Virus record (IMG/VR): IMGVR_UViG_2602041909_000007
Direction: 5' to 3' (one strand)
Length of the DNA stretch: 36,618 bases
From: a virus
Taxonomy: Duplodnaviria; Heunggongvirae; Uroviricota; Caudoviricetes
Made by a program: the position numbers and the translations under genes. Positions 1 through 30,628 of this stretch are shown in pieces (the first letter of the stretch is position 1; the number at the start of each line of letters is the position of its first letter). The notes below the pieces were generated by a model that ran no database searches, had not been told where the DNA came from, and worked only from the letters and a program-made list of their open reading frames with translations.

Positions 1-1293
<1,293 letters not shown>

Positions 1294-1313: not shown

Positions 1314-1337
1314 AAAAAGCGCCTGCGGGCGCTTTAA
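1314..1337. terminator. Stem-loop terminator downstream of serS (stronger T-tract on minus strand)
   Basis: AAAGCGCC-tgcg-GGCGCTTT hairpin; plus strand followed by TTT only, minus strand followed by TTTTT. Confidence 0.5.
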
Positions 1338-1410
1338 GAAGAGGTTTAGCTATTTGAAAATAAATGGATTTTATTTTTAAGTGTCCATATAACGTCCATC
1401 TTTGAATGCA

Positions 1411-1592: not shown

Positions 1593-1736
1593 TTACTGTC
1601 TACACTGTAAGAACGCCGCAAACTCCGCTCCCCAGAAGCTCATCCGTATCTCGCAGAGCGAACCCCGCAACATCCAGATGATGAGGATTGCCGTCACGCA
1701 CAGTGTGGTGATGGCGATTAGCGATTTTTGCGACAT
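1593..1736 (-). CDS. Hok/Gef-family type I toxin-like small membrane peptide (47 aa)
   Basis: Not in ORF track (<60 aa). My translation: MSQKSLIAITTLCVTAILIIWMLRGSLCEIRMSFWGAEFAAFLQCRQ. One N-terminal TM helix followed by SLCEIR and EFAAF motifs, as in Hok of R1 (…RKSLCEIR…EVAAF…). AGGAG Shine-Dalgarno 9 nt upstream of ATG. Confidence 0.6.
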   Translation of the reverse strand: MSQKSLIAITTLCVTAILIIWMLRGSLCEIRMSFWGAEFAAFLQCRQ

Positions 1737-1839
1737 AGCACTTGCTCCTTTTTCGGAGAGGCGCTAACCTACGACTTGCGAAGGTTGTATGGCTAGGGCC
1801 TCGGGTTAACGTTAAAGTTGACTCGGGGCCTTTCCACAT
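1600..1839 (-). CDS. Mok-like overlapping reading frame (modulator of killing) of the hok-like locus
   Basis: 79-aa ORF in a different frame starting ~100 nt upstream of the hok-like ATG and ending 7 nt past its stop, the characteristic mok/hok overlap geometry; no independent sequence conservation assessed. Confidence 0.35.
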   Translation of the reverse strand: MWKGPESTLTLTRGPSHTTFASRRLAPLRKRSKCYVAKIANRHHHTVRDGNPHHLDVAGFALRDTDELLGSGVCGVLTV

Positions 1840-2403
1840 CCGGCCTTCAGGTATTCCCTCCAGCCATCAGCCGAAAGGCACCCGCGCGAATTCTAGCCTG
1901 GTTTTTTCCCTTGTTTCAATCCGTTGAGGCCTGTCAGTCTTCTGATATAAAATTCCCGACCGCAGACATTATTCAGTCACGCATTTGATACATGCTTCCG
2001 CCGGCGTTCGCGCCGGTTTTTCGTCCTGTTGCTGCATAGATCGTCATGTGCGATCGAGGCGCGGCATTGATCCTTTTTTCAGTTTAATTTCGACTCTCAA
2101 TTTTACGCAGGCCGCGCCGCGTCTGGCTTCGTTGTTTGACGATTTTTCTATGCGATCCTTTCGCGATCGTGTCTTACCCCACGTAAAGCATGAAAACTCT
2201 TTTAATATCATGCGGTTTCGTTGACCCCGCCATTTATGGGATCGTAAAAAACCTCTCTGAAAACTGCAAAAAATTTCAAAACGTGAAATTTCAGATCTTC
2301 GCTTTTCCCTCAGTTGCTGCGCGGGCTGGCGGTCATTTTTGCACGGCAGAAAACTGAAAAAGTGTTTCGACACAAAACCCGCGGGTTGGAGGGGGTAGCG
2401 CGG

Positions 2404-2447
2404 TTTACGTCACCTCACGCTTTACGTCACACCGTTTACGTGGTGTG
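2404..2447. repeat. Three direct repeats TTTACGT(CAC) with a CACACC/GGTGTG inverted repeat; candidate integrase arm-type sites or regulatory repeats at the prophage left junction
   Basis: tttacgtcac at 2404-2413 and 2421-2430, tttacgtggtgtg at 2435-2447, spacing 17 and 14 bp. Confidence 0.3.
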
Positions 2448-2500
2448 CGCATACAGCGCCGGAATGGCACGCAGAACGCATTAATCAGGTGGCGGATATG

Positions 2501-2525
2501 AAAACGCACGACCGGAGCCGTGCGT
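2501..2525 (-). terminator. Rho-independent terminator of the minus-strand late tail operon
   Basis: On minus strand: CGTGCG stem, 8-nt loop, CGCACG stem followed by TTTT; ~40 bp downstream of the last tail gene stop (2565). Confidence 0.5.
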
Positions 2526-2564
2526 TGCGTGATGGGGCGTTTATGGGGGTTTTATGCCCGGTGA

Positions 2565-4262
2565 TCAGGCGATAAGGTCACAGTATTTTTCGCGCAGGCT
2601 CGTAGCCTGTTGGGCGTCTGCAGCAAGTTCGCTGCTGTTTGTTGGTGCGCCGGTGTTGCTGTGGGTGTGGTTTGCAGTGTGTGTGGCCAGCAACTGAACC
2701 AGATCCAGAATATCAATCAACAACGTCAGCAGATTAAGTCCGGATTTTTCCCGTGAGTCACCGCGACCAATAAATACTGTCGGGGCTGTAAACTCCAGAC
2801 CACCGTCCGCTCGGCATGTTCTGCGACCTCCCACGTTTTCAGTAAGGTCGTGTTCAATCGTGGATGTCGCCCCTTTGAGTTTAGTCAGCAAATCCTGCGC
2901 TACCATCTGGATATGCTCACTGGCTGCGATCGCGTAATGACCGGTAGTAAGGTGCTCTATTTGTCCTGCCATTAGCTTGCTGGTTCCCAGAACGCTGGTT
3001 ATATCGTTTGCCTGTACTGTGGTTGTTCTGGTTGTTGTTGTGCGTTCCTCCTGATCGCTGTTAATGGTTCGCCGGGCTGAATGTTCTCTGATTTGCTGGT
3101 CGGTTTCTCTGTGCCAGCTTCCGTCAGCCGTGACGCGCTGAAACACTTCTGCGCGCTGTTGCTGCAGCTGTTCGCCGGGCTTTACATCAGGCAGGTTATG
3201 GCCAGCGGGTAAGATTTGCCTGATAACGGGTTTGTCCGGACGTCCTTCAATGTTGGATATTTCCACGATGGTGCCTGCCGGTGGGTAGGCAAAACATCCC
3301 GCCTCACTGCCAGCCATGGGGACGGGGAGCGGTACTGCCGGGTAAACGGGCGTGTCGCTTTTATCGTTGCCGTTCTCATCAAGCAACTGCACATCGACGG
3401 CGTAGCGTGGGCGGAAACTGTCGGCCACATCGCCCAGGGTAGTTGGCTCCGTTGGCGCAATGACGCGCGCCAGCCGGGTATGTAGCGTACCGCTGGCCAG
3501 TTCCGGGAACTGTGTTTCCATTTGTCTGCGTAATGGTGATTTGGAAACAGGGTTACCCGTGGCGGTAAGGCGCTCCCATGTCAGGGTCATTTTCTCGTTG
3601 TTGAGGGCTACACGGGTAATGCGCCCGGCCGGTAGGTTCACGCCCGGTCGCACAGTTTCCATAAACATGATGTCGATGCTGTTTCCGCCGCTTTGCCCGA
3701 GTGTGTACTGTTGCGGAATATCCGGCATTGTAATACTGGCAAATCGTGAATCAGCTGCGCTTCCCACAAATACAGAACCGTCCGGCATAGGGTGCCAGAC
3801 GTAATCGCTGATACTGAATGCTCGCCCCAGTTGGCTGAGCAGTTGTGCTCCGCTGCCGCTGTGGGTGATGTAGGGAGTTGGTATACTGGCATAATCCGCA
3901 TCCGGAGTGATAAAAACGATACCGCTTTGTCGCCCCAGATTATCGAGTACCCCCCGCAACGTCGGGTGTTGCATGGAGCAAGGGAAATCAAAATCCAGCA
4001 CAGCAGCCGCTTCACGAATAAAAAGGCGACGTGAGCCATTTTCAGCAGGTTGATCGCGCTCAATGTAGCCGGAGAAATAGCGCCATGCTTCACCGTCACG
4101 GCCGAGATCAATTTGTACCATTGCGCCGGCAAGGCTGTGTTCGGGTGACAGATTGTTAACAGAAATGAAGCCACGACCGGCAGCATTCAGGGTAAGAACA
4201 AGGTTTATATCGGCAATTTCCACCCGTTCGCCATTAATAATACAGCGTTGTATTAATTTCAT
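2565..4262 (-). CDS. Putative baseplate central spike/hub protein (gpV/gpD class, extended, 565 aa)
   Basis: Last gene of tail operon; N-terminus (IINGERVEIADINLVLTLNAAGRGF) resembles OB-fold start of P2 gpV/gpD-type proteins as I recall them; C-terminal HTANHTHS (HxH) resembles metal-binding spike tip. Assignment from memory only. Confidence 0.4.
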   Translation of the reverse strand: MKLIQRCIINGERVEIADINLVLTLNAAGRGFISVNNLSPEHSLAGAMVQIDLGRDGEAWRYFSGYIERDQPAENGSRRLFIREAAAVLDFDFPCSMQHPTLRGVLDNLGRQSGIVFITPDADYASIPTPYITHSGSGAQLLSQLGRAFSISDYVWHPMPDGSVFVGSAADSRFASITMPDIPQQYTLGQSGGNSIDIMFMETVRPGVNLPAGRITRVALNNEKMTLTWERLTATGNPVSKSPLRRQMETQFPELASGTLHTRLARVIAPTEPTTLGDVADSFRPRYAVDVQLLDENGNDKSDTPVYPAVPLPVPMAGSEAGCFAYPPAGTIVEISNIEGRPDKPVIRQILPAGHNLPDVKPGEQLQQQRAEVFQRVTADGSWHRETDQQIREHSARRTINSDQEERTTTTRTTTVQANDITSVLGTSKLMAGQIEHLTTGHYAIAASEHIQMVAQDLLTKLKGATSTIEHDLTENVGGRRTCRADGGLEFTAPTVFIGRGDSREKSGLNLLTLLIDILDLVQLLATHTANHTHSNTGAPTNSSELAADAQQATSLREKYCDLIA

Positions 4263-4834
4263 GTTTTCCCTTCCTTTTTCACGCTCCCGATGCCAATCCA
4301 GTCCAGCCCGGAGCCAATACCATCATTGATATTTTTCCAGAAAGTTTCCTGGGTATTCATTCCTTTATCCGGCGTCAGCTCACTGCCGTTCTGTGTCTGC
4401 TGCTTTGCGATTGTTTTCTGTGAGCCACTGCGTGCCGATGCTTTTTCCGGCACGCTTAATTTTTCCCTGAGAGTAAAGGTGACCTGCCAGTGCATTTTCC
4501 CCTGTTGTTCCGTGGCATCAATGCCACCAGAAAATACCCCCTGTCGCATATTGATTGCCTTCGCGGTAGCGTTGGCAATGCGATACGTTTTTTTAGCTCC
4601 GTTACTTTCTGTTGCCTCCGCAAGCTGAAAAATACGGGTCAGAATAGCTTCATCGTTAAAGTCAATAACCCCCGACACGCGCAGCTCTTTAGCCTTGTTT
4701 CCCTGCTGAGCGCTCGTGGTGCTGGTTGACTGTCCGGACATATCTTTATCCGGTAGTTGCATGGTGGCGCTGACGGTGATGTTGCGCAGCAGAATGGCTT
4801 CCCCGTCAAGCGCAAGGACAATCATCTGGGTCAT
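4259..4834 (-). CDS. Hypothetical tail-associated protein (191 aa)
   Basis: ORF translationally coupled (ATGA-type overlap) to downstream spike/hub gene; position analogous to P2 gpU but no recognisable motif. Confidence 0.35.
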   Translation of the reverse strand: MTQMIVLALDGEAILLRNITVSATMQLPDKDMSGQSTSTTSAQQGNKAKELRVSGVIDFNDEAILTRIFQLAEATESNGAKKTYRIANATAKAINMRQGVFSGGIDATEQQGKMHWQVTFTLREKLSVPEKASARSGSQKTIAKQQTQNGSELTPDKGMNTQETFWKNINDGIGSGLDWIGIGSVKKEGKT

Positions 4835-5555
4835 GTAGTGCTTCCCTTAGTGATGAGAGATCATCGCCGACGAACAGCATCACAGCTGTAAAAACCCACT
4901 CGGGGTGTGGGATGTTTTTTTGTATCAGCGCTGCGGCCTGGCTAAGGACTCCCTTGTAGCAAAAGCGCCACACCGGGCAAAATTTTTGCCGGAGTGCGGC
5001 CTGCTGATCAGCGATTTCCTGTAGAGCTTTATCTCTCGCATTCGCGAACTGACGCAGCTCTGATGACAATGTTTCCGGTGATGTGGCAGCAGGAGTAGCT
5101 GCCTGTGCAATGGTTGCAGCCAGCGACATGCTGCGAGTGGTCTGTGTCGACAGCATTATCGGTTCCGGAAGTGATGTTACCGGTCTGGCGGGGATTTGCA
5201 TTCTGCTGATGGTCAGCGAAAGTTGGCTGGAGATCATACGGGACATTCTCCCTATTTCTGGCAACGGAAATGCACCTGAAAATTGTCTGGCAAGCGATAA
5301 AAACTCAGCAACAGACGGGGCGCAGAATAACATCGCCACGACGTCTTTTTGTGTATTTTCTGTCAGATACGGTAAAAGTGCAGACACTGCATTATCCGGA
5401 CTGAGGTAGCGTCCCGATGGTGTGGTATTCCCTGTATTTACTGACCATGGGTGGAAACAAATCATTGAACTGGTGATGTTTATGGGGTGCGGGTGCAGAA
5501 TTGAGACCGCCCAGTCAGGGCGGTTATTTTTATTGTCTTTCAAATGAATATTCAT
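4806..5555 (-). CDS. Hypothetical protein (249 aa), possibly fiber-associated/chaperone
   Basis: ORF in tail operon between second fiber set and tail hub genes; no motif recognised. Confidence 0.35.
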   Translation of the reverse strand: MNIHLKDNKNNRPDWAVSILHPHPINITSSMICFHPWSVNTGNTTPSGRYLSPDNAVSALLPYLTENTQKDVVAMLFCAPSVAEFLSLARQFSGAFPLPEIGRMSRMISSQLSLTISRMQIPARPVTSLPEPIMLSTQTTRSMSLAATIAQAATPAATSPETLSSELRQFANARDKALQEIADQQAALRQKFCPVWRFCYKGVLSQAAALIQKNIPHPEWVFTAVMLFVGDDLSSLREALHDPDDCPCA

Positions 5556-5587
5556 AGGTGTGTGAGATATTGCTGGTACTTGCGCGG

Positions 5588-6646
5588 TTACTGTCGGGAG
5601 GTTGTGGGTTGGTTATATAACTCCGTTGCAAAAATTATCTCTCCTTCAGTAAATGGGATATCTCCGTCAGGCTGTGTCGTAAAACTCTGTGAGACAGTCG
5701 TCCAGCTGTTTGTGTCAGCCTGCACGTCATTCTCTGTAACTGTTTCTCCTTCATGGCTTCCGCTTTTTACACTCCAGGCCAGGCAGTTATTGGGGGCGTC
5801 CGCACTGCGATAAGTGACAGCCGCCATAACTGCGACCAGATCGCCATTGCTGTTATCTACCGCACCAAACGTAACCTGTGCCGCCTCCGGGGACGGTGAG
5901 AGCATCAGGTATCCGGCATCACTGTCAGAGGTGTTCAGTCCCGTGACGATATCTTTATCCAGCGAGTTTTTCGCACTCCCCCCGGTAAATGCGGTTACCG
6001 GGCTGTATCTGACCTCAATAGCCCCAAGCAGGGCGGGTTCCGCGCTGTTATTTTTTCCGTATGCCACTGTTCCACAGTACATATCACCCAGCATTAACGT
6101 GCCGGATGCACCCGATGAAAAAATATTGTCACCACTACCAATACTCACCTGAATTTTGTCAGTCCGGTCATCTGATACATAAAACGATGTATTTCCAGCT
6201 AATGAGCGGTTGCAGTACAGACTGGCTGAGACATAGCCGTTTTCGTTTCGCGTTGCGAAAATTTCATAGTAATAACTGGCTGCTTCATCAGGATACGGGG
6301 TTGTAAATGAATAGCCATTAATCCTGATGTGGGATGGCGAAGATGAATATTTCTTTCCCGCACTTAATGTCAGACGAAATCCCAGCTGTACAGCTGAGGT
6401 CTTTAAGTCCGGGAGTGTGCTGTACAGTGTGACATATGAGGGTGTCGTAAAAATCAGCCCCGTTCTTTCTACAGTATTTACGGCCTGAGTGCCACGACAG
6501 ACGGATGTTACAGAACCGGACATATCATTGATAAGCGTGACACCGTTTTCGTTCAGTGCTGAAATAATATTTGTTGAATAATAGTTCTCGCACAATCCCT
6601 CATTCGCCGGAATTTGTCGGAACCCTTCCAGATTAATAATATTCAA
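5588..6646 (-). CDS. Hypothetical Ser/Thr/Gly-rich protein (352 aa), possible distal receptor-binding part of second fiber
   Basis: ORF immediately downstream of the second fiber-like gene; S/T/G/N-rich composition typical of beta-rich adhesin-like domains; lower GC than flanking tail genes by eye. Confidence 0.35.
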   Translation of the reverse strand: MNIINLEGFRQIPANEGLCENYYSTNIISALNENGVTLINDMSGSVTSVCRGTQAVNTVERTGLIFTTPSYVTLYSTLPDLKTSAVQLGFRLTLSAGKKYSSSPSHIRINGYSFTTPYPDEAASYYYEIFATRNENGYVSASLYCNRSLAGNTSFYVSDDRTDKIQVSIGSGDNIFSSGASGTLMLGDMYCGTVAYGKNNSAEPALLGAIEVRYSPVTAFTGGSAKNSLDKDIVTGLNTSDSDAGYLMLSPSPEAAQVTFGAVDNSNGDLVAVMAAVTYRSADAPNNCLAWSVKSGSHEGETVTENDVQADTNSWTTVSQSFTTQPDGDIPFTEGEIIFATELYNQPTTSRQ

Positions 6647-6670
6647 AATATTCCCCTTATTTAGTTTCTA

Positions 6671-7528
6671 TTAAGCAGCAGATAAAACCGCAAACTGCAG
6701 TACTGCCCGAGCTACTGTCAGTGGCTCATTGGTTTGATATGCTGGTACAAATAAGCCCCTGTTAACTGTTACCGGCTCGCTCATCAGACGTCCGGTTTGT
6801 AATTGTATGTTGTTAATGGTTATCGGTTCGTGGATGGTGCGCCCTGACTGAACAAATTTTCTATTAATTGTTAAAGGCCCCCTTGTCTGTTCCCCGGACT
6901 GAAGCAGTACTCTGCTGATTTGCAAAGCGGGCTTTGGTGTTTCCGGTGGGAGGGCAGGTTTTTCCTGAGGAGCCATTGCCTCAGCTATCAACATTCGTAC
7001 AAATCTGGCATTAACAATCTCAAGACCCGCTGCATCATTTGGTGGTGTTGGAGTGGTTGGCGCTCCGGAAAACGACGGGCTTTCCAGAGGAGCCTTGTTA
7101 TTTAATTCAGAAAAAAAATCTACCTGCCAGCTTTGTGGCGGAGTAGTAATATGAGCGATTTGTGGCAGTCCGCTAAAAATGATGGCGAAATTCCGGATGA
7201 TAGTTTCTCCTGTGTGTTTATGTCGAACAGGACCACTTATAACTCCGCACAATGTGTTACTGGCTTGATGAACCAGGCAAATCCAGTCGTAGTTGAAATT
7301 TTCGTTATCAGCAACAATGGCACTACACACAATGCTGTTTTGATCCAGTTTTCCATAATGTAGGTTATTTACCCTGTGCGTGATTTTTTCAGGAGGAATA
7401 ATCGTATCATCTCTGGAAGGCTCTCTCTCCATCAGTGCAAAAACAATAGCGTCAGGGCGTGCCGGTAAATTACTGGCGGTGCATTCAGCAACCCATTTCT
7501 CAAATGCTTTCGTCAACAGTGCGCTCAT
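6671..7528 (-). CDS. Second tail-fiber-like protein: paralog of fiber N-terminal (baseplate attachment) domain plus C-terminal tandem repeats (285 aa)
   Basis: N-terminal ~150 aa align with N-terminus of the 566-aa fiber (shared E.W.A, PARPD..VF, F.Y.WI.L, IRNF, WQVDF); C-terminus has ~14-aa tandem repeats (LQSGEQTRGPLTIN / VQSGRTIHEPITIN / LQTGRLMSEPVTVN). Confidence 0.55.
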   Translation of the reverse strand: MSALLTKAFEKWVAECTASNLPARPDAIVFALMEREPSRDDTIIPPEKITHRVNNLHYGKLDQNSIVCSAIVADNENFNYDWICLVHQASNTLCGVISGPVRHKHTGETIIRNFAIIFSGLPQIAHITTPPQSWQVDFFSELNNKAPLESPSFSGAPTTPTPPNDAAGLEIVNARFVRMLIAEAMAPQEKPALPPETPKPALQISRVLLQSGEQTRGPLTINRKFVQSGRTIHEPITINNIQLQTGRLMSEPVTVNRGLFVPAYQTNEPLTVARAVLQFAVLSAA

Positions 7529-7534
7529 TACTTC

Positions 7535-8086
7535 TTAATTCTCGCTAATGTTCTGCGGTAATTCTGGCCATACAATCGCGGCATACGATGCTTTATCTGT
7601 AACCTGGCTGAATGTCATCTCCCGTAACGTTTTTGTATAAATACGGCAGGCTTTCAGTTTTTCCCTGTCTTCGTCGCTGATTAATCCCAGCAGCAGGTCT
7701 TTTTCCCATTCGCTGGTCATGATGCTGACCTGTTTTAACAGTGCATCACGCTCATCTTCCGCTTTAAGTTTGTAGTCGAAGATAAAATTGCCATCGCGGT
7801 AAAACCAGTAACCAGGCACGGTAATACGGCGATTAGCGGTAATATCCGGAACTTCAATAACACTGGCATTACGGGGTTCAATGCCTGTCACATCCTTACC
7901 GACCCACACCACGCGCCCGTCCCCGGTGTAAACCATTTTTATTGTGTCGCTGGCAAAGTTCTTCTGTTCTTCATGCCAGTTTTTGTCGTCTTCCGAAAAA
8001 AGCCAGGTGACACCATATTGTTTTGTCATCTGATATTGTTCTGCGGTTTTCGGATTGCCCGCAGTAATATTTTTTAAATGCAACAT
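7535..8086 (-). CDS. G: Tail fiber assembly protein (P2 gpG/Tfa family)
   Basis: Starts MLHLKNITAGNPKTAEQYQMTK..., strongly reminiscent of P2 gpG ([22 protein letters not shown]...); located directly downstream of fiber gene. Confidence 0.85.
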   Translation of the reverse strand: MLHLKNITAGNPKTAEQYQMTKQYGVTWLFSEDDKNWHEEQKNFASDTIKMVYTGDGRVVWVGKDVTGIEPRNASVIEVPDITANRRITVPGYWFYRDGNFIFDYKLKAEDERDALLKQVSIMTSEWEKDLLLGLISDEDREKLKACRIYTKTLREMTFSQVTDKASYAAIVWPELPQNISEN

Positions 8087-8088
8087 TG

Positions 8089-9789
8089 TTAAACACTCGT
8101 CACGTTATACCAGGTGCCGTTAATCAGTTTCTGAAGCGGTCGGTAATACACGCCGCCGATGTTATCTGCCGAATTACTTCCGGTTTCCTGCACATTAATA
8201 CCAGATAATCCATGGCCTGAAGGTGAGCGAAATGTCCAGGATATCTGGTTACCTCCCGGGTTGTAATACATTTCGGAACCATAACGCACATCCTGCACGC
8301 CGCCTGTTTTGGTCTGGTAACGGGCATCAAAGTTTCCGTAGTCTGACGGTGTTACCCGCCCGGTAACGTTTACAGGTTTATTGCTCTGAATGCTGCCACT
8401 CTGAAAACGCAACACATGCACGCTATTGGCATAAACATCCAGCAGGCCATCACCATTCTGTTTCAGGCCGGTATCGTTATCCCCGAAAGCAATTGAGTTT
8501 CCGCCCAGCGCGTTCTGAACGCCGATACCCAGCGCACCATTCACCTGAGAGCCGCCACCAACAGACACTTTATGCGACATGGATATTTCACCCGTCCGCA
8601 GATTAATAGTGAACGGACGCAGGGGACCAATATCGCCATTTTCGCCCTGATTTTCCCGGGTGGGAATAAGATGCAGGCACTCTTCAGAGCGACGAAAAAT
8701 CAGGCCAAAAGCTTCGTTGAAAATCCTCAGTGCATTAACACCACGGACTTTCAGCTCCCCGGTCATGGTGTCGCCGTCGCGCTCAACAGCGTCTTTTGCT
8801 TTATCCATTGCAGCTTTTACTGCCTTTGATGTGGCGGCGCGGTCTTCTGCGTCGCTGTCGGTGGAGTTGCTGTACTGCGCAAAGCCTTTCTCCTTCAGTG
8901 TTGCATCCGGATGATGGCGGGATTTTTCGTGCTCTGCCAGTGCATTGCTCTGTTCCTCGTCGGGTGTCTCCGGGCGCAGGTCCTGTGGGCCGTCTCCTGT
9001 CATTTTTGCAAGTGGCGCGACAAAGTGTCGGAAGCCGTTACCGTCTGTATAAGACGCATGTTCCTGGCGGGCGCAGAACGTAAAAACGGTATTCCATTCG
9101 CCGGTAACAAATCCCTGCCAGCTTGCATCAATCCAGAGGGTATCCCCGACCGCAGCCGGCAGGCTGTAAGGTTTGCGCAGACTGACGCGCAGACCTCCCA
9201 CATAACCCACGCCGGCGGCAACAGTAGCGGTACCATCCTGATAGCTGACCTGAAAACCATCCCCCAGAAAAGCGGCTTCACCGTAGTGATCAAACGCCAG
9301 CAGCCGGCGGGCCTCATCCATTCCTGCAAGGCGCGCAGTGAAATCAATCTGCCAGACATCGGCGCTGACATCGATATGCATTGCTGCGGCCGCGCCGTCA
9401 AACTCCATGGAAAATGTGCGGATCAGGTTGTTTCCCTGCACGCCGTTCGCTGTTTTAATTTTTTGCTGACGAGGTGTGTGTGCAATCATGCAGAGCACGC
9501 CGCTTTCTTCGTTCAGCAGACCGATCCAGTTGTATTCGAAGTCGCCGACTGTCGTGTCCAGAATGATGGAAAACGCGGTCGCGTTCGGCGACAGGAGGCC
9601 GTACTGGGTGACCGGCGCACGATACTGAATCATGGATTCATCAGGGAGTATCTCATCGCGGGGGATCTCTGCGGATTCATCCTGTCCCGGAATATATCCA
9701 AAAACAAATGTATCCGGGCGCGCAGGTTTTCCACTGATGAGCTGATTCGCACACCAGTGTTCGTACTGTTCAGTAATAATTGTGCTCAT
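8089..9789 (-). CDS. Tail fiber protein (566 aa) with P2 gpH/T4 gp37-like C-terminal receptor-binding region
   Basis: Position between gpI-like and Tfa; contains phage tail fibre repeat-like segment (KAAMDKAKDAVERDGDTMTGEL) and Gly-rich C-terminal region; N-terminal domain shared with 6671..7528 product. Confidence 0.85.
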   Translation of the reverse strand: MSTIITEQYEHWCANQLISGKPARPDTFVFGYIPGQDESAEIPRDEILPDESMIQYRAPVTQYGLLSPNATAFSIILDTTVGDFEYNWIGLLNEESGVLCMIAHTPRQQKIKTANGVQGNNLIRTFSMEFDGAAAAMHIDVSADVWQIDFTARLAGMDEARRLLAFDHYGEAAFLGDGFQVSYQDGTATVAAGVGYVGGLRVSLRKPYSLPAAVGDTLWIDASWQGFVTGEWNTVFTFCARQEHASYTDGNGFRHFVAPLAKMTGDGPQDLRPETPDEEQSNALAEHEKSRHHPDATLKEKGFAQYSNSTDSDAEDRAATSKAVKAAMDKAKDAVERDGDTMTGELKVRGVNALRIFNEAFGLIFRRSEECLHLIPTRENQGENGDIGPLRPFTINLRTGEISMSHKVSVGGGSQVNGALGIGVQNALGGNSIAFGDNDTGLKQNGDGLLDVYANSVHVLRFQSGSIQSNKPVNVTGRVTPSDYGNFDARYQTKTGGVQDVRYGSEMYYNPGGNQISWTFRSPSGHGLSGINVQETGSNSADNIGGVYYRPLQKLINGTWYNVTSV

Positions 9790-19461: not shown

Positions 19462-20475
19462 TCAGGCGATGGTGACCGCAGACTCATCTACGGCAGCATA
19501 TAAATCCGGATCGCCCAGGGCGTACCCCTCGTAACGCCAGTATGAGTTTTCGAACTGTTTGCGATCGCCCACATCTTCTGCCTTGCGGCGGCGGGAGCCT
19601 TTCAGCGTCAGGATCTGCAGGTTTGGCAGCATGGTCACCACCATACGTTTGCCCGGCATAAACGGCGGAATGATGGCCTTGCGGCCTGCAATGTTCTTCG
19701 TCAGCAACTGTGCGGCCACTTTTTCGGTAGGCTTATCCTCTTTGTTGTAGAGGCGTAGTTCTTCAGCAGCCACAAGGTCTGCGCCGACCAGTACGGTAAG
19801 TCGTGGGTCGTTGTGATACTGTGCCGGGATGTAAGTGCGGATCAGGTCTGAGGCCATGGCATCAAGACCGACATAATCGCCGCCTTCGCCCAGGGTAACG
19901 GCGTCTGTCAGAATACGGGAGGTATTGCCGGGCTGTTCTCCCCACTTTTTGGCGATTTCATGCCAGCCGATGTTGACGTCTTCGCCGTTCGGGTGACTTT
20001 CCGGGTCAGAGTTTTCCGCTGCTGTTTTACCGTTAAAGCCAATGCGCAGCATATCCAGCGCAAAGTTGGTAACGGCGGCGGAGTTCATCAGGTTGAAAAA
20101 TTCCTGCGGGCTGCCGGCATTCGCCCAGATGGCGAGTTGTTCCCAGGTGATCACGCAGCAGGAATCAGTTTCAACGAGTTTAAATTCGTTGCCTTTGATG
20201 CCCGAACCTTTAGCGAAACGACCGCTTTTCACGCGACCGGTGCGCAGTGTGGATTCGCCCACGGTGACGACCTGCCCCTGCGGGTGCGGAACGTCCATGC
20301 AGGTGATGAAACTCAGAAACTCCGTGCTTTCCAGCAGGGCTTTACGCAGAGCAATACTGCGTGGCTCGGTCAGCGAAAAGAAACGATCGCTTGATTTCCC
20401 GCAGTCACTGAATGTTTTTTGCAGTTCGCTGATGTACTGATTAACCAGCTTTTGTGCTTCTGGTGTCATGTTCAT
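19462..20475 (-). CDS. N: Major capsid protein (P2 gpN-like, 337 aa)
   Basis: Position after scaffold gene; size close to P2 gpN. Confidence 0.85.
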   Translation of the reverse strand: MNMTPEAQKLVNQYISELQKTFSDCGKSSDRFFSLTEPRSIALRKALLESTEFLSFITCMDVPHPQGQVVTVGESTLRTGRVKSGRFAKGSGIKGNEFKLVETDSCCVITWEQLAIWANAGSPQEFFNLMNSAAVTNFALDMLRIGFNGKTAAENSDPESHPNGEDVNIGWHEIAKKWGEQPGNTSRILTDAVTLGEGGDYVGLDAMASDLIRTYIPAQYHNDPRLTVLVGADLVAAEELRLYNKEDKPTEKVAAQLLTKNIAGRKAIIPPFMPGKRMVVTMLPNLQILTLKGSRRRKAEDVGDRKQFENSYWRYEGYALGDPDLYAAVDESAVTIA

Positions 20476-20489
20476 TGCGTTCTCTCCGG

Positions 20490-21380
20490 TTACACCAGGT
20501 TAAAAGTTTCGCCACCGGCCGGATTGTTGCCCGGCAGCTTCGTGGCGTCCTTGCTGAGTTCAGCAAATGCGGTTTCCATACTGGTAACCTTCTCCGCGAT
20601 GGCGTTCACTGTGGAGAACAGCTTTTCGCCCTGCTCGGTGGTCAGCGTGAAGGTTTTGTCGTCCTTGTTGTTCTGTTCTGCGTTGTCCTGCCCCTGATCG
20701 CCGGTGCTGCCTTCCGGCTTGTTATCACTGGTATCTTTCGGGGCATCCTTCGCGCTGAACTGCGCGACGTTTTCTTCCAGTTTGTCCAGGCGTTCGCCGG
20801 TTTTGTTGATAGCGTCCATCAACTGGCCGAACTGTTTTTCGTTCATATCGTTTTCCTGTTTGTTGCGTCCCACGGAGAAAAGGCCGGAAAAGAAACTGCG
20901 TTTGGCCTGCTCGTCGTCAGACTGCAGCGTGAAATTCAGTTCTTCTGCATTCCCCATGTGAATGGAATCTCCCTGCGAAAATTGCAGGCGGGTGGTGTTG
21001 ATGCTGGCCGGTGTGTCAGTCACAGCGATACCGGATACAAAGAATTTGCCTGTTCCCAGGTAGTTTTCCTTTACCTCTATGGAGGTGAAAAGTTTTTGTC
21101 CAGCCTCGTTGGCTTCGGTCAGAAAGCGGTTGGGTATCAGGCGGGCTTTCAGCTGCACTTTATCACCGACTTTTTCCGCCTTCAGTGCATCAACAAGACC
21201 ATAGTTATTGGTGAAAGCACGCCAGCCGGCGCTGGCATGAAACGGCCAGAGCATGGCGGTGTGTTCGTCCGGGTTATAAACCTCGGCGGCATCCGTCAGC
21301 CACTTTGGATCAATTTCCCGACCGTCGATGGTGGGGCCTGAAGTGGCTACGACCACCCAGTCTGTTTTCAGTTTCGACAT
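20490..21380 (-). CDS. O: Capsid scaffolding protein (P2 gpO-like, 296 aa)
   Basis: First gene of minus-strand late operon divergent from terminase; acidic, coiled-coil-rich C-terminal half; conserved GIAVTDTPAS-type segment as in gpO. Confidence 0.8.
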   Translation of the reverse strand: MSKLKTDWVVVATSGPTIDGREIDPKWLTDAAEVYNPDEHTAMLWPFHASAGWRAFTNNYGLVDALKAEKVGDKVQLKARLIPNRFLTEANEAGQKLFTSIEVKENYLGTGKFFVSGIAVTDTPASINTTRLQFSQGDSIHMGNAEELNFTLQSDDEQAKRSFFSGLFSVGRNKQENDMNEKQFGQLMDAINKTGERLDKLEENVAQFSAKDAPKDTSDNKPEGSTGDQGQDNAEQNNKDDKTFTLTTEQGEKLFSTVNAIAEKVTSMETAFAELSKDATKLPGNNPAGGETFNLV

Positions 21381-21574
21381 CTGAATTAACCCGCTGATAA
21401 AAATTAAACTGGCGTTATTTAACGGAGAAATAAAAATGTCGTCATCTGATTAATTTCCGGTACTTTCGGATATGCGTATATATCCGAAAAATACCGAAAA
21501 GCGATATTCGTTTTTAAAAAAGCCTTTGCTGAAAATGCATAAATTAAAATTGCATCAGCAGGTGAGGTTTATTT
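21381..21574. promoter_or_regulatory. Divergent late promoter region between scaffold (O) and terminase (P) with a large inverted repeat
   Basis: AT-rich 194-bp intergenic region; near-perfect palindrome TTTCGGATAT-gcgtat-ATATCCGAAA at ~21454-21479 (extended ~21449-21485). Confidence 0.5.
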
Positions 21575-23362
21575 ATGGCGTATTCTGATGAGGTGATTGC
21601 TGCTGCAAAATCGCTCTATCTGAAAAGGCACACACCAAAAGAAATACAAAAGAAACTCGGACTGAACAGCCCGCGAATTGTTTATTACTGGGCGACAAAG
21701 TTTGAGTGGTACACGCAGCTCAATACGGAAGGTGTGGAGGATGTTATCGCCCGGCGTCTCGCTGTACTGGCGGAGCGTGACCATAAAACGCCGGAAGAAC
21801 ACGATGAACTCGACCGCCTGATTGGTCATCACGTCAAACTAATGTCGGTCAGAAACAAGCACACGGAACGAATGGCTGAGATTGCGCGAATGGGAGTGGA
21901 CATCCCCCAGCCGGGCCGTTATGGAAAAGAAGAACGCGGAGAAAAAGGTGCAGGTAAGAAAGAGCGTCCCCGCAAAACTAATGACGTTTCCGGACTGACT
22001 GCTGAAAGTTTTGAGCCGTTTACGAAGAAGTTGTTTGCTTATCAGTTGCGCCTGCGTGAAAACAAATTCCGCCGTGTACGCAACCTGCTTAAATCCCGTC
22101 AGATTGGGGCGACGTATTACTTCGCGTTTGAGGCGTTTGAAGATGCGGTATTAACCGGCGACACACAGATATTTTTATCGGCATCAAAACGTCAGGCCGA
22201 AGTGTTCCGTACTTATATTGTAAAAATTGCACAAACAGAGTTTGGCATTCCCATTAAAGGCAATCCGGTTAAGTTAAGTAATTTGGCTGAACTGTATTTT
22301 CTGGCGACCAACAGCAACACGGCACAGTCAAACAGCGGCCACCTGTACATTGACGAATACCTGTGGATCCCCGGTTTTCGCCGTCTCAATGAAGTGGCGT
22401 CAGGGATGGCCACCCATAAACACTGGCGCATTACCTATTTCTCCACGCCGTCATCCAAAACACACCAGGGTTATCCGTTCTGGTCTGGCGATGAATGGCG
22501 CAAAGGTGATCCGAAACGAAAAGGGGTTGAGTTTCCGTCCTTTGATGAACTGCGTGATGGCGGGCGCGAATGCCCGGACGGTCAGTGGCGCTATGTGGTT
22601 ACGCTGGAAGATGCCATTGCCGGCGGCTTTAACCTTGCTGACATCAACGAGCTGCGCGAGCGATACAACGAAACAGCGTTCAATATGCTGTTTATGTGTG
22701 TGTTTGTGGATGACAAAGAGAGCGTCTTTAAATTCGATGACCTCGTGCGCTGTGGCGTTGATGTCAGTACGTGGGAGGATTTTCACCCGGAAGAACCCAT
22801 GCCATTTGGTAACCGTGAGGTGTGGGGTGGCTTTGACCCTGCGCGCTCCGGCGATAACGCCACGTTTGTGGTGCTGGCACCGCCGCTGGTTTCGGCAGAA
22901 CGATTCCGCGTGCTGGAAAAACACCACTGGCGCAGTATGTCATTCCAGTTTATGGCAGAGCGTATCCGCAGCATTAAGGCGCGCTATAACATGACATTTA
23001 TCGGCATTGACGTCACCGGTCTTGGCTACGGTGTCTTTGAGCTGGTTCAGGGATTTGCCCGCCGTGAAACAGTGGCCATTCATTACAGCGTTGAATCCAA
23101 AAACCGCCTGGTGATGAAGATGCTGGATCTGATTTACGCCAACCGTATTGAGTGGGATGAAGAAGCCACAGATATTCCGGCATCGTTCCTGGCCATTCGT
23201 CAGGAGTCCACTAACAGTGGCAATAAAGTCACTTTCACCGCCGAACGTAGCGAAAAAACCGGGCACGCAGACATCTTCTTTGCCATAGCTCATGCCGCAA
23301 GTAATGAACCCCTGAACTATAAGCACAAGCGCAAATCAACATGGATCCTGTCAGATGAGTAA
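21575..23362 (+). CDS. P: Terminase large (ATPase) subunit (P2 gpP-like, 595 aa)
   Basis: Size matches P2 gpP (590 aa); divergent from O; followed by portal with overlapping stop/start. Confidence 0.9.
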   Translation: MAYSDEVIAAAKSLYLKRHTPKEIQKKLGLNSPRIVYYWATKFEWYTQLNTEGVEDVIARRLAVLAERDHKTPEEHDELDRLIGHHVKLMSVRNKHTERMAEIARMGVDIPQPGRYGKEERGEKGAGKKERPRKTNDVSGLTAESFEPFTKKLFAYQLRLRENKFRRVRNLLKSRQIGATYYFAFEAFEDAVLTGDTQIFLSASKRQAEVFRTYIVKIAQTEFGIPIKGNPVKLSNLAELYFLATNSNTAQSNSGHLYIDEYLWIPGFRRLNEVASGMATHKHWRITYFSTPSSKTHQGYPFWSGDEWRKGDPKRKGVEFPSFDELRDGGRECPDGQWRYVVTLEDAIAGGFNLADINELRERYNETAFNMLFMCVFVDDKESVFKFDDLVRCGVDVSTWEDFHPEEPMPFGNREVWGGFDPARSGDNATFVVLAPPLVSAERFRVLEKHHWRSMSFQFMAERIRSIKARYNMTFIGIDVTGLGYGVFELVQGFARRETVAIHYSVESKNRLVMKMLDLIYANRIEWDEEATDIPASFLAIRQESTNSGNKVTFTAERSEKTGHADIFFAIAHAASNEPLNYKHKRKSTWILSDE

Positions 23363-24389
23363 AAAGAAAAAATCCCCCGTGCTACACGATGGCGTGGCAA
23401 AAAAAACAGCCAGCAAAATGACGTTTATTGAATTTGGTGACCCGGAACCAGTCGCTGCATGGGGCTGTTATTACGGCTCGCTCTGGGATGGCTATAACGG
23501 CTGGTACACGCCGCCCATTGAGCGCATGGATCTCGCTATGTTGGCCAATATCGCACCGTATCACGGCGCGGTATTGCGTGCGCGCGTCAATATGATCATG
23601 CAGGGTTTTCGGGGGGGCGGTGGTATGACACACGCCGCCATGGCGGCAGCGGTGACCAATCTGCTGATATTCGGGGATATGGGTCTGCTTAAAGTGCGCA
23701 ATGGCTTCGGTCTGGTAGTGCGCCTGCACACACTGCCGTCGCTGTACCTGCGGCGTAACAACGAGGGTGGCACGGTGATTGTGCAGGCGGCACTGGAAGA
23801 TCTCGTTTACCCGCCAGGCGAAGTGGTGTTCGTGGCCATTTATGACCCGCAACAGCAGGTTTACGGTGTACCGGATTATATTCACGGGATGGAATCCGCC
23901 ATGCTGAATGTGGATGCCACCCGCTTTCGCCGCAAGTATTACAAGAACGGCGCACATCTTGGTTATATCCTGTATTCCACTGACCCGGACATGGATCCCG
24001 AGCTCGAGGCGGAATTCCGTAAAAAGATAGAGGCGTCAAAAGGGGCGGGCAATTTTAAATCCATGTTTATCAATATACCGGGCGGAGACAAAGAAGGCGT
24101 TAAGGTGATCCCTATCGGGGATTCAGGTACAAAAGATGAGTTCCTGAATATAAAAACCATCAGTGCCCAGGATCAGCTCGTCGCGCACCGTTTCCCACCC
24201 GGACTTGCCGGCATCATTCCCGCAAATACGGCCGGGCTTGGTGACCCACTGAAATCCCGCGAGGCATATTACAGGGATGAGGTTATCCCGATGCGCCGCC
24301 TGATTATGGAGGGGATCAACAGCGACCCGGATATCAGACGACTGGGGGAGGTGAAATTTATTCTTGATTTTGATGAACCCATGGAGTGA
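23355..24389 (+). CDS. Q: Portal vertex protein (P2 gpQ-like, 344 aa)
   Basis: Exactly the length of P2 gpQ (344 aa); P-then-Q transcription order as in P2. Confidence 0.9.
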   Translation: MSKKKKSPVLHDGVAKKTASKMTFIEFGDPEPVAAWGCYYGSLWDGYNGWYTPPIERMDLAMLANIAPYHGAVLRARVNMIMQGFRGGGGMTHAAMAAAVTNLLIFGDMGLLKVRNGFGLVVRLHTLPSLYLRRNNEGGTVIVQAALEDLVYPPGEVVFVAIYDPQQQVYGVPDYIHGMESAMLNVDATRFRRKYYKNGAHLGYILYSTDPDMDPELEAEFRKKIEASKGAGNFKSMFINIPGGDKEGVKVIPIGDSGTKDEFLNIKTISAQDQLVAHRFPPGLAGIIPANTAGLGDPLKSREAYYRDEVIPMRRLIMEGINSDPDIRRLGEVKFILDFDEPME

Positions 24390-24454
24390 TGTGCGGTATG
24401 GGGAAAGAGCGGGTAAAATCGGTGGCAGTAAAACGCTGTTCCGGGAGGTGGAAA

Positions 24455-24712
24455 ATGCGCAGACAGAAAGCGCGATGTCATTGCTGCGGTGCACATGCAG
24501 TGATTGAGAAAACAGCCTGGAAAACCGATCAGTTTGCTGATGTGTATTACCGTTGCACCCGTCTCGAGTGCGGACATACCTGGGTGATGAATCTGACCTA
24601 CTCGCACACACTGGTGCCCAGCGGGCTGGAGAATGGTGTGTTAAAGCTGTTGATTGAGCGGATGCGTCCGGAAGAAAAACAAATGGCTCTGGAGTTGTTG
24701 CAGGCCGGATAG
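24455..24712 (+). CDS. ogr: Ogr/Delta-family zinc-finger late-gene transcription activator (85 aa)
   Basis: Start at ATG 24455 with GGAGG SD; CHCCGAH…(22 aa)…CTRLECGH matches C-x2-C…C-x4-C zinc finger of P2 Ogr (CPLCQHAAH…CQNVNCSATF). Confidence 0.7.
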   Translation: MRRQKARCHCCGAHAVIEKTAWKTDQFADVYYRCTRLECGHTWVMNLTYSHTLVPSGLENGVLKLLIERMRPEEKQMALELLQAG

Positions 24713-24732
24713 CTGACGCGCTTCGCTTGTCC

Positions 24733-24785
24733 AACCCGGAACGGGCGCACAAAGAATTTGCGCACCCGTTCCGGGTTTTCTTATT
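24733..24785 (+). terminator. Strong rho-independent terminator after ogr
   Basis: Long imperfect palindrome CCCGGAACGGGCGC-acaaagaatt-TGCGCACCCGTTCCGGG followed by TTTTCTTATT. Confidence 0.7.
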
Positions 24786-25140
24786 CAATGGCAGACAACT
24801 GATAATTTGTGTCTTCCTGCAGGCTGGTTAAAGAAATATTATCCAGTGCAGCCAGAATAACGTGCTGTGTATATAATCCGGAACATTTCATTGCCCGGAC
24901 AATATCACCAACACTGTAATTTTCTTTTGTCGGGATATATCCACCACCCGGGCCGCGTGTGGCTTTTACCAGGCTACTTTCCCGTAAATATCTGAATATT
25001 TGCTCCAGATATGACAGTGAAACGGTTTCTTTGCTTAATTGCCGGAGTGAGATTGGCTTTCCGGTGTACTGTTTCACAAATTTAATCATTACCATAACTG
25101 CAACTGATGCACGCTGGCTTCCGGAATTATCTTTCATCAT
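24781..25140 (-). CDS. Rrf2-family transcriptional regulator (120 aa)
   Basis: [29 protein letters not shown] closely matches Rrf2/IscR wHTH signature ([29 protein letters not shown]); start set at ATGATG 25140 with SD; no Cys cluster. Confidence 0.8.
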   Translation of the reverse strand: [119 protein letters not shown]

Positions 25141-25151
25141 GATTACTTCCA

Positions 25152-25439
25152 TTAATGGCATAAATTGATGGGGCGGGTCAGTGAATAAAGAGGCAATACA
25201 TTCCATCCCTTAGAGCGCCAGCTGTCTGCAACATCTTTACTTCTTGTTATCGCCGGTATTCCAATAGGATTATTTGCGTGCATCCATGCCACTGGCTCTG
25301 CTTCCAGTGATGCAAGTGCGATTTCCAGTGCGATTAACATATTGTGATCGTCTTCATCAAGACCGAACGGGATGTCTTCGCGCCACGATTTAAACTCTGT
25401 GATTTTACGTTGTAACCATTCTTTGGTAATGGTGGACAT
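25152..25439 (-). CDS. Hypothetical protein (95 aa)
   Basis: ORF with AGGAG SD before ATG at 25439; Trp-rich C-terminal region; no confident family. Confidence 0.45.
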   Translation of the reverse strand: MSTITKEWLQRKITEFKSWREDIPFGLDEDDHNMLIALEIALASLEAEPVAWMHANNPIGIPAITRSKDVADSWRSKGWNVLPLYSLTRPINLCH

Positions 25440-25453
25440 AGTTACTCCTGTTT

Positions 25454-25768
25454 TCACTTCGGGAAAAACGCCTGAATATTCTTTTTCACCTGCTGCATAT
25501 GGGGGGCGCTGTCTGCTGCTGGTTGCGCCGGTTTTTCAGGCTGTACTGGTAGCGGTGGCATCCGTATTTCGTCTTCTGACCATTCTGCCAGCGAATACGC
25601 CAACGCGGGGGTGCGTTTTATAAGAGCCAGTCCAGCCAGAAAAGCCGCGCGTTGTGCGCGGCTGCGTTCGGAGGCTGGCAGGCTGTCGAGGTAACTGCAC
25701 GCCTCCCGTTCGCTCTTGACGACGGCGGGCTTCAGATAGAAACTTATCCGTCTGGTTGGTGTCGTCAT
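25454..25768 (-). CDS. parR: ParR-like centromere-binding adaptor (104 aa)
   Basis: Immediately downstream of parM homolog; LDSLPASERSRAQRAAFLAGLAL resembles R1 ParR (LDSIPQGERSRLNRAALTAGLAL); start at ATG 25768 with AGGAG SD. Confidence 0.7.
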   Translation of the reverse strand: MTTPTRRISFYLKPAVVKSEREACSYLDSLPASERSRAQRAAFLAGLALIKRTPALAYSLAEWSEDEIRMPPLPVQPEKPAQPAADSAPHMQQVKKNIQAFFPK

Positions 25769-25772
25769 TGAT

Positions 25773-26732
25773 TTACTCCTTGTCCATTGCGTACAGCCCA
25801 TTAACCAGAGCAAACTGTGGCACCCCGTCCGCGATGAAAGTCGCATTAACTCCGCAGGCTTCGCGGATAGCGGGTGCCACAATCTCCGCTCCTCCACCTA
25901 CAACCATCACCCGCCCGTAACCCGAAAAAACCGCCAGCGCGCGGATCACGCGTTGTTTCAGTGTTTCCTCCTTTTCACGAATAACTGCCATCAGGCTGGC
26001 GTAATGCGCGTCATTGTGGATGTGCTGGCGCAGCCAGGCTTCATCGTGGCGATGTTCGATAATGGTATTGGCGATGTGGTGACTGGTGCGCATACCGTTG
26101 GTGGCCATCACCGACAGCACGGCATCGGCCATCAGAGAAACGCCTACGTGTGGATCGCAAAACACCTGGCTGATACCTGCCAGTTGCCCCTGAACCTTTG
26201 CCACATCCAGCGTGGTTCCGCCCAAATCCACAATCAGCAGGGATTCAAACGGACTCATGTCAGCCAGTGCCTTAAAACCAGCCGGAATGGATTCAGGCAT
26301 AACCCGCACGTTACGGATAGTGAATGCCTCGCCGTTCTGGTACTCCACCGGGCGCATAACGTTCGCTTTTTTGCGGTTGATGTTGGCCATGTCCGGCTGT
26401 GCGTTTGTGTCGAAATACTCGCTCAGTGGCAGGGTAACAACCACATCCACTTCCTGTGGTGTGATGCCTGATTTGACCAGCGCGTGGTGAATGGCGATTA
26501 CATTCACATCGCTGTACTGGTATTGCGTGTCGGTCGTCTGGACAAAGCGATCGCTGACCGGATCAAAACCATAGCGCACGCCATCAAGCATGTAGTTCGC
26601 GGGCTGCGTGCCACCGAACGGCGCAGACCATTCCGACTTGAAGCTGTTCGGGCTGATGGCGTTGCGGCGTTCGCCGTTCTCAGTCCATGCCAGCTTGATG
26701 TTGGTGGAGCCGTCGTCGATACAAATTTTCAT
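25773..26732 (-). CDS. parM: ParM/StbA-family actin-like segregation ATPase (319 aa)
   Basis: Near-colinear similarity to plasmid R1 ParM as recalled: IDDGSTNIKL, ISPNSFK, YSDVNV.A.HHAL, VMPESIPAG, DLGGTTLD, GGGAE, LVNG.Y. Confidence 0.9.
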   Translation of the reverse strand: MKICIDDGSTNIKLAWTENGERRNAISPNSFKSEWSAPFGGTQPANYMLDGVRYGFDPVSDRFVQTTDTQYQYSDVNVIAIHHALVKSGITPQEVDVVVTLPLSEYFDTNAQPDMANINRKKANVMRPVEYQNGEAFTIRNVRVMPESIPAGFKALADMSPFESLLIVDLGGTTLDVAKVQGQLAGISQVFCDPHVGVSLMADAVLSVMATNGMRTSHHIANTIIEHRHDEAWLRQHIHNDAHYASLMAVIREKEETLKQRVIRALAVFSGYGRVMVVGGGAEIVAPAIREACGVNATFIADGVPQFALVNGLYAMDKE

Positions 26733-26763
26733 GTCGCTTTTCCTTATGTTGATTAATTAATCG

Positions 26764-26876
26764 TTTACGGGATTTTTAAATCCCGTTTTCGCCTGTTTTG
26801 TGCGCGCTTCATATATCGCGGCGCGTTTTTTGCTCATTTACGGGATTTGTGAATCCCGTTTCTGTCTGTTTTTTGT
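26764..26876. repeat. Two ~38-bp direct repeats each containing palindrome ACGGGATTT(n)AAATCCCGT; candidate parC-like centromere / ParR binding sites
   Basis: tttacgggatttttaaatcccgtttt (26764-26789) and tttacgggatttgtgaatcccgtttc (26838-26863); first copy is intergenic upstream of parM, second lies in the last ~20 codons of the gpA-like ORF. Confidence 0.4.
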
Positions 26877-29631: not shown

Positions 29632-29637
29632 ACTGAT

Positions 29638-30003: not shown

Positions 30004-30075
30004 TGCGGCAATCCTCTTGTTACAGATGTGCGAAGGCCTCCCGCCGCAAGGTGCAGGAAAGGCCCGGAACAGGAA

Positions 30076-30306: not shown

Positions 30307-30309
30307 GGT

Positions 30310-30540: not shown

Positions 30541-30628
30541 GCACCCGTTTTATGGGGTGCAGCGGAAATGTAACCTGATTGATTGCGGCAGGGCAAGCGG
30601 TTTTTTTGTGTGTGCATGTTCTGGTTTC

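Follow-up and report, generated by a model that had tools for sequence, protein, structure and literature searches.

We analysed a 36,618-nucleotide stretch of viral DNA (IMG/VR record IMGVR_UViG_2602041909_000007; hereafter the window) that comprises the chromosomal gene serS and, in the terminator of that gene, an integrated and apparently intact P2-like temperate prophage. The prophage carries two modules of the classes known from plasmid R1, a hok-type toxin locus beside its left end and a parM-parR partition cassette that lies 24 kb away on the prophage map. Both had been noticed in an earlier reading of the sequence (the original prediction), which singled out the span from the hok stop codon (1593) to the parM start codon (26732), assigned the two loci to the R1 classes and placed them 'on or beside' one prophage. 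Pfam and PDB matches bear out their presence and their classes (HOK_GEF for Hok, StbA_N and ParM_C for ParM, Plasmid_stab_B for ParR), and both lie on the prophage itself.

The left end of the prophage is the attR core AAAGCGCCTGCGGGCGCTTT (1316-1335), which is also the terminator hairpin of serS. This 20-bp core is present at both prophage ends when the empty site of E. coli K-12 is compared with the lysogen E. coli E300010. Outside the element lies serS (1-1293, plus strand), which is 93% identical to K-12 serS and 99.0-99.6% identical to that of six genomes that encode the exact SerS protein of the window and all have an empty 238-bp serS-dmsA site. Homology between these six sites and the window ends at base 1335, and everything from 1336 to the window end is a single prophage. 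The six genomes are probably Escherichia albertii, judging from their accession series and from the 93% serS identity to E. coli. The whole window is 98.95% identical to the E300010 lysogen at the same insertion site, yet serS is only 93% identical, and comparison of the two sequences suggests recent spread of the prophage across species.

Because the attR core lies at 1316-1335, the hok locus (about 135 bp from the core, with its open reading frame [ORF] 258 bp inside the prophage end) belongs to the element. All seven empty serS-dmsA sites, those of K-12 and of the six same-lineage genomes, are without hok. We therefore reject the view that hok is native chromosomal DNA, and on this point the original prediction survives the empty-site comparison. 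The hok locus accompanies related prophages at five chromosomal sites; at serS/dmsA, flk/pdxB, raiA and btuC/ihfA it lies at their tail-proximal ends. Its location inside the att core, its absence from empty sites and its presence with prophages at other sites together place hok on the phage. Integration also swaps out the T-run of the serS terminator (GCGCTTTTTTT becomes GCGCTTTAAGAAG; window 1316-1345). The phage arm has its own hairpin and T-run on the plus strand (1412-1441), which may stop serS read-through that would otherwise run antisense to the 3' region of hok.

The hok toxin ORF (1593-1736, minus strand) encodes 47 amino acids with an SLCEIR motif and scores 34 bits on Pfam HOK_GEF (cut-off 22); it falls under the cut-offs of the NCBIfam HokA and Hok models. 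The E300010 locus is 100% identical, and the Prokaryotic Genome Annotation Pipeline (PGAP) names its product 'Hok/Gef family protein'. Promoter-like site, terminator, fold and an Rfam sok match outline a hok-type mRNA at 1472-1883 on the minus strand. Its promoter-like site has a -35 element at 1919 and a -10 element ending at 1890, with the mRNA start near 1883, and a promoter and terminator scan places the terminator at 1507-1478. The 5' end, GGGUGCCUU (1883-1875, tac-like), pairs with a 3' element, AAGGCACCC (1534-1526, fbi-like). The predicted fold of the 412-nt RNA has a free energy of -180.1 kcal/mol, compared with -135.5±6.1 for shuffled sequences (z=-7.4). In a consensus fold of six hok homologs the 5'-3' closure is invariant and the inner long-range helix is kept through compensatory changes, with both-sided changes in 12 of 131 predicted pairs. 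Homology among seven hok loci stops just past the 3' closing element. A mok-like overlapping frame of 79 codons (1600-1839, minus strand) covers all of hok in another frame; by analogy with mok of R1 it may play the same role.

A sok-like antisense RNA is predicted at 1742-1835 on the plus strand, from a promoter-like site and a hairpin read from the sequence. The putative promoter consists of a -35 element TTGCTC (1742-1747), a 17-nt spacer and a -10 element TAACCT (1765-1770), so that transcription would start near 1777, and the predicted hairpin occupies 1797-1830. This promoter is placed, we presume, like the sok promoter of R1. The stretch is invariant or nearly so across the seven homologs. 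A consensus promoter scan found the hok promoter and did not pass the TTGCTC-17-TAACCT site. For sokW of the Stx phage Sp5, 71 nt of complementarity have been reported (PMC8621323). Rfam at its gathering threshold finds no hok/sok in the window. A relaxed search returns the sok model RF01794 at 1723-1883 on the minus strand with 38.6 bits (gathering score 59); the model matches in the hok-sense orientation, and plasmid R100, our control, scores 88.9 bits on its hok strand. The experimentally validated hokW-sokW locus of Sp5 reaches only 35.6 bits on the same model. Because a validated locus scores equally low, the low score marks lineage and not decay. Between the hok promoter and the last baseplate gene lie 640 bp (1925-2564) in which E300010 has no annotated gene and Rfam finds no match. 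A related-prophage match (about 91% over the whole query) spans this stretch, which contains three TTTACGT repeats at 2405-2445.

The locus resembles hok/sok (parB) of R1 and R100 in its SLCEIR peptide, the overlapping mok-like frame, the predicted antisense promoter just upstream of the hok start, the 5'-3' fold-back and an mRNA of about 410 nt. It differs in the Rfam score given above, in a toxin that is 33% identical to Hok of R100 and in DNA that cannot be aligned: a blastn comparison with R100 hok/sok returned no alignment. Its closer relatives are phage loci. At the DNA level it is 81.5-82.6% identical to hokW of the Stx phages Sp5 and 933W (81.5% for Sp5) and 83-89% identical to loci in P88-like prophages (83% for P88 itself). 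The protein is 89% identical to Hok of P88 and 70% identical to the Sp5 HokW ORF. By these comparisons, hok belongs to the phage hokW-sokW lineage and has the same leader, fold-back ends and low Rfam score. In contrast to Sp5 and 933W, the phage that carries it is P2-like rather than lambdoid, the locus occupies the prophage end nearest att, and its function is predicted from sequence. Takada et al. established hokW-sokW of Sp5 as a type I toxin-antitoxin (TA) system in which, after mitomycin C treatment, sokW vanishes and HokW is made in a RecA-dependent manner; deletion of the locus halves Sp5 release (PMC8621323).

The second module begins 76 bp past the stop codon of gene A and is co-oriented with it. 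parM (25773-26732, minus strand) encodes an actin-like segregation ATPase of 319 amino acids with full-domain matches to Pfam StbA_N (275 bits) and ParM_C (231 bits). Residues 2-316 match R1 ParM (PDB 1mwk, E=8e-93), and the nucleotide-binding motifs DDGSTNIK, DLGGTTLD and GGGAE align. The adjoining parR (25454-25768, minus strand) encodes a centromere-binding adaptor of 104 amino acids (Pfam Plasmid_stab_B, 85.7 bits) with a weak match to StbB/ParR of pB171 (PDB 2jd3, E=0.009). ParM is 99.7% identical to ParM of P88, and ParR is 57% identical to its P88 counterpart. Pairs of parM genes within the phage lineage differ by 7-28 synonymous versus 0-8 non-synonymous changes, for a ratio of non-synonymous to synonymous rates (dN/dS) of 0.01-0.13; parM is under strong purifying selection. 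ParR is conserved over its first 60 residues and again in a tail at the C terminus, (K/A)(K/G)NI(Q/R)(A/T)(F/L)FP(K/E), with a variable linker between the two. The tail reads KKNIQAFFPK here and KKNAMKLIN in R100, and we liken it to the ParM-binding tail of R1 ParR. A near-invariant ParM together with conserved ParR ends and a free linker is the pattern of a working partition pair. Some genomes carry two or three copies, and where prophages share a host in this way the divergence of the linker could reflect diversification of their partition specificity or of their incompatibility. Downstream of parR lie two cargo genes, for an Rrf2-family regulator (24781-25439, minus strand) and a small PHROG-660 protein (24455-24712, plus strand), and the whole stretch 24390-26810 is common to only 37 E. 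coli genomes.

A repeat search upstream of parM located a candidate parC or operator (26761-26875) made of two 42-nt direct repeats 73 bp apart. Each repeat holds the 20-bp palindrome ACGGGATTnnnnAATCCCGT, at 26767-26786 and at 26840-26859, and the upstream copy falls within the last codons of gene A. The palindrome occurs only twice in the window, a count that none of 100 shuffled sequences reached, and the pair is kept in six related elements. The cassette thus resembles parMRC (parA, stbAB) of R1 and R100 in its parM-parR order, full-length ParM alignment, Plasmid_stab_B-type ParR, KKN-type tail and repeats upstream of parM. It is unlike them in residing on an integrating phage, downstream of a rolling-circle initiator. 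The upstream region itself is unlike parC of R100, in which ten A/C-rich direct iterons surround the promoter, and the assignment of a centromere to the two palindromes is therefore a hypothesis.

Could both modules be decaying passengers without present function? A scan for a consensus promoter of parM came back empty, and the Rfam sok score lies under its gathering threshold. These observations are outweighed by the selection on parM, by ORFs that are intact in 1279 genomes, by the conserved hok mRNA structure with its compensatory changes, and by the equally low model score of the experimentally active Sp5 locus. We reject decay and consider it very improbable.

The original prediction also proposed recent recombination with an IncF-like plasmid, an idea that has in its favour the shared functional classes of R1 parA and parB. 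The sequences speak against it. ParM and ParR are 46.5% and 34% identical to the R1/R100-type proteins (measured to R100), and among the best 5000 plasmid ParM matches 4994 fall under 60% identity, the top one at about 52%. The hok DNA cannot be aligned to IncF hok/sok (R100), and in sensitive mode the locus matched only 35 of 72,556 plasmid records. Low identity to plasmid ParM and ParR, together with unalignable hok DNA, refutes a recent IncF exchange, and we regard capture of both modules from such a plasmid as vanishingly improbable. The modules also sit at two separate loci with different histories. parM shows 95-100% identity and was found only in company with a gene A of the P88 type; hok, which lambdoid as well as P2-like phages carry, has a DNA identity of 82-89% among them. 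Having diverged further (83% to P88), the hok DNA does not simply belong to one recent early block with parM. The two are accessory modules of independent origin.

The rest of the element places it among P2-like phages (Peduoviridae). It has a gene A endonuclease, Cox, a C-type repressor, Ogr, and a portal-terminase unit divergent from scaffold, capsid and small terminase; window proteins match Pfam Phage_GPA and Ogr_Delta. Gene A (26809-29631, minus strand) encodes a rolling-circle replication endonuclease of 940 amino acids (Phage_GPA, 431.7 bits) that is 98.2% identical to gpA of P88. We located the tyrosine integrase (35626-36618, plus strand) by mapping coordinates to the near-identical prophage of E300010 as annotated by PGAP. 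The integrase stop codon is the exact end of the window, and in E300010 the attL core begins 83 nt past the corresponding position. The early order in E300010 (PGAP) is integrase, C-type repressor, Cox, small early genes, gene A endonuclease, ParM and ParR. There follow two cargo genes, Ogr, the portal and large terminase genes divergent from scaffold, a P2-family capsid and the small terminase, and then a contractile tail module and Hok adjoining attR. No pseudogenes are annotated in this near-identical copy, and the element therefore looks intact.

The closest named relatives are Escherichia phage P88 and its kin (genus Xuanwuvirus, Peduoviridae; among them Citrobacter phage phiSM, P884B11, PhiR44_2, Chuche and 520873), with which the prophage shares the order int-C-cox through gene A, parM and parR, and a hok locus adjoining att at the other end. 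The likeness is confined to one half. In the 12.2-kb right part, 56% matches P88 at 94% identity. The 23.7-kb structural part gives no megablast match to P88 except over the hok stretch, and, apart from the hok locus and pieces of tail fibre, none to any phage. Identity to P88 is 20-36% for the capsid, portal, terminase and sheath proteins, and the best match of the major capsid among 50,697 phage records is a Cronobacter ESSI-2-like P2-family capsid at 58.6%. ogr adjoins the portal gene here, whereas in P88-like genomes it adjoins hok and att. As judged by these comparisons, the prophage is a hybrid of a P88-type early, replication and partition half (25454-36618) and a divergent virion half (1336-25000). 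The genus criterion of the International Committee on Taxonomy of Viruses is about 70% nucleotide similarity over the full length. As only the early region matches P88, we do not assign the prophage to Xuanwuvirus.

Is the pairing of hok with parMR unusual for a P2-like element, as had been proposed? Both modules occur at the same positions in every complete P88-like genome that we inspected, namely P88, 520873, the prophages of E300010, O26 RM8426 and Z1323HEC0067, and the circle pZ1323PEC0009-2. P884B11, PhiR44_2, phiSM and Chuche appear in the match lists of both hok and parM. This type of ParM is found in 16 of the 50,697 phage records: 14 are P88-like (at least 95.6% amino acid identity) and two are phage D6 (47.8%). 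Several ParM-bearing 'phage' records are truncated prophage predictions and were left out of the hok scoring. Full-length parM with at least 95% identity is present in 1279 of 5426 complete E. coli genomes (23.6%), including O157, O26, O111, O145 and ST131 strains. A ParM search of genome contigs gave two loci, one in Salmonella and one in an assembly labelled Vagococcus sp. The latter (NZ_JBQPOM010000071.1, a 226-kb contig) carries an enterobacterial parM at 98% identity and is probably contamination or a mislabelled assembly. The combination is standard equipment of the known P88 group and not a sign of recent plasmid recombination. What holds of the original prediction as a whole is thus the R1 classes, carriage by a P2-like element and a hok that is not chromosomal; the IncF recombination and the supposed rarity do not hold.

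We next consider whether such phages live outside the chromosome. Seven PLSDB plasmid records carry parM of the type in the window. The lengths of five, 227 kb to 1.4 Mb, point to misassigned fragments or to large replicons into which a prophage has inserted. In another, a Shigella boydii plasmid record of 26.8 kb, the match is partial and covers 53% of the query. The seventh, a 34,461-bp circular 'plasmid' (NZ_CP148288.1), is a complete P88-like genome. Its ends are the prophage ends of a 99.95%-identical copy integrated in a different strain, apparently from the same study to judge by strain names and accession numbers (NZ_CP148378.1), and its junction holds a single copy of the 20-bp flk/pdxB core AAAATCCTTGTTGATGAAAA, an exact attP. 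This circle proves that excision is precise and that the circular form was abundant enough to assemble. It fits spontaneous induction and episomal carriage alike.

One explanation would make P88-type phages facultative phage-plasmids that persist long-term as low-copy circles, through gpA, ParMRC and Hok/Sok, as an alternative to integration. The element does hold a complete R1-like maintenance kit and a rolling-circle initiator, the circular record comprises an entire P88-like genome that is joined at a precise attP, and D6, the sole other phage with this ParM (StbA-type) among the phage records, is a P1-like, true 91-kb plasmid prophage. Against these stand the places of parM in the 5426 complete E. 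coli genomes, which are 1441 chromosomal versus 2 plasmid. The other PLSDB matches are very large replicons or fragments, the integrase and the att sites are undamaged and have served for insertion at five or more places, and phiSM is described as integrated in the chromosome of its lysogens. A single circular contig would also result from spontaneous induction in the culture that was sequenced. A stable episomal lifestyle is not supported, and we judge it quite unlikely. The copy in the window is itself no plasmid prophage, as it is integrated with attR at 1316-1335.

We favour instead a role in the transient circular phase: the two modules would stabilise or organise circular phage DNA, a proposal to which, as a whole mechanism, we assign a probability of roughly 0.55. 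Once excised, the circular genome reads tail genes, hok, attP, int, immunity, gene A, parM, parR and cos, with hok and int converging on attP about 240 bp apart. In this circular order the modules flank one contiguous lysogeny-replication block. P2-family replication yields circular monomers. The modules would act in this extrachromosomal phase, after excision or infection, as gpA makes such monomers. The palindromes would serve as docking sites for ParR, and filaments of ParM would drive the circles away from one another, leaving a copy in each daughter cell. The hok mRNA would be stable and tightly folded, silenced by its 5'-3' closure and by a short antisense Sok-like RNA; once Sok transcription stops, Hok would be made and would damage the inner membrane. 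Hok/Sok could in this way penalise cells that lose the element, aid lysis after induction as hokW does in Sp5, or both. Acting together, the modules would reduce prophage loss without the phage being a plasmid prophage. Homology best supports the mechanism proposed for each single part, a type I TA system in the case of hok and DNA pushing of the actin type in that of ParMR, and from these we infer the joint role.

Stabilisation of the circular phase is favoured by analogy with two systems. Integrative and conjugative elements (ICEs) belonging to the SXT/R391 family integrate and combine rolling-circle replication, a ParMRC-type locus (srpMRC) and a hipAB-type TA system, which, as was shown in R391, jointly reduce loss of the excised form (PMC4489591). 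They differ from the prophage in that they are not phages, their SrpM and SrpR are distant from R1 ParMR and their TA system is type II; the analogy is one of function and not of homology. The second is AlpAC of the Corynebacterium prophage CGP3, an actin-like protein with its adaptor on an integrated prophage, where AlpC is a distant actin that serves replication and transport (PMC4446434).

The AlpAC precedent also suggests a different reading, in which ParM is a cytoskeleton for lytic growth that positions or transports replicating DNA, as AlpC and AlpA do, and has no part in inheritance, while hok is an unrelated moron that helps lysis. Since parMR is co-oriented with gene A, 76 bp downstream, and we found no terminator between gene A and parM, read-through from the early lytic operon is expected, and the effect of hokW on Sp5 release fits as well. 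The architecture, however, is orthologous to R1 ParM and ParR, whose demonstrated activity is to push plasmid pairs apart. E. coli O157:H7 strain F8797 has a CP-933T-like remnant at yecA (NZ_CP038353.1, 2257700-2277600) in which insertion sequence elements have removed the head genes and the hok end, but the ORFs from int to gene A, together with those of parM and parR, are still intact. Intact parMR in a remnant that cannot make virions is a mild counterpoint to a purely lytic role. On balance we think this reading unlikely.

Several observations weigh against stabilisation of a transient circle. Binding of ParR to the candidate palindromes is conjecture, and parC of R1 has ten 11-bp iterons where only two sites are present here. 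Our scan found no consensus sigma-70 promoter upstream of parM. The role shown for hokW in Sp5 is help with lysis, not stabilisation (PMC8621323). Exact-match scans for a serS-type attP junction returned none in IMG/VR or in Joint Genome Institute (JGI) metagenome contigs, and the overwhelmingly chromosomal placement of parM in E. coli leaves an extrachromosomal phase beyond normal induction undocumented. Publications on P88 and phiSM describe integration of the ordinary kind and do not take up parMR: phiSM is described as an ordinary integrating temperate phage with a par gene listed only as 'fitness' cargo, and the P88 paper mentions neither module. In the literature on P2-like phages with ParM we found no study of ParM or ParR function.

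Elsewhere in the window, two Rfam matches exceed their gathering thresholds, a C4 antisense RNA (30362-30449, minus strand; 76.8 bits) and isrK (30485-30560, minus strand; 61.3 bits). Both fall within the early operon, close to the place that a 'derepression protein' and ash-like remnants have in annotated P88-like genomes. The region resembles a c4-antirepressor immunity piece of the P1/P7 style, here in a P2-like phage.

As a discovery the pairing is modest, since it can be read off existing annotations of P88, of phiSM and of many E. coli prophages. The remaining question is functional: why does an integrating phage keep a segregation machine? In a bolder form of our proposal, P2-like phages of the P88 type would pass through a genuinely plasmid-like stage, either once excised or before they integrate, with replication by gpA, partition by ParMRC and killing of segregants by Hok/Sok. 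We advance this tentatively and think it rather doubtful. If true, it would be a phage counterpart of the maintenance strategy of SXT/R391 ICEs and would explain the presence of a highly conserved actin-type segregation machine on an integrated prophage in about a quarter of E. coli genomes. More generally, if parMR and hok/sok stabilise the excised circle, integrating phages would share with SXT/R391 ICEs an 'integrated but plasmid-equipped' strategy.

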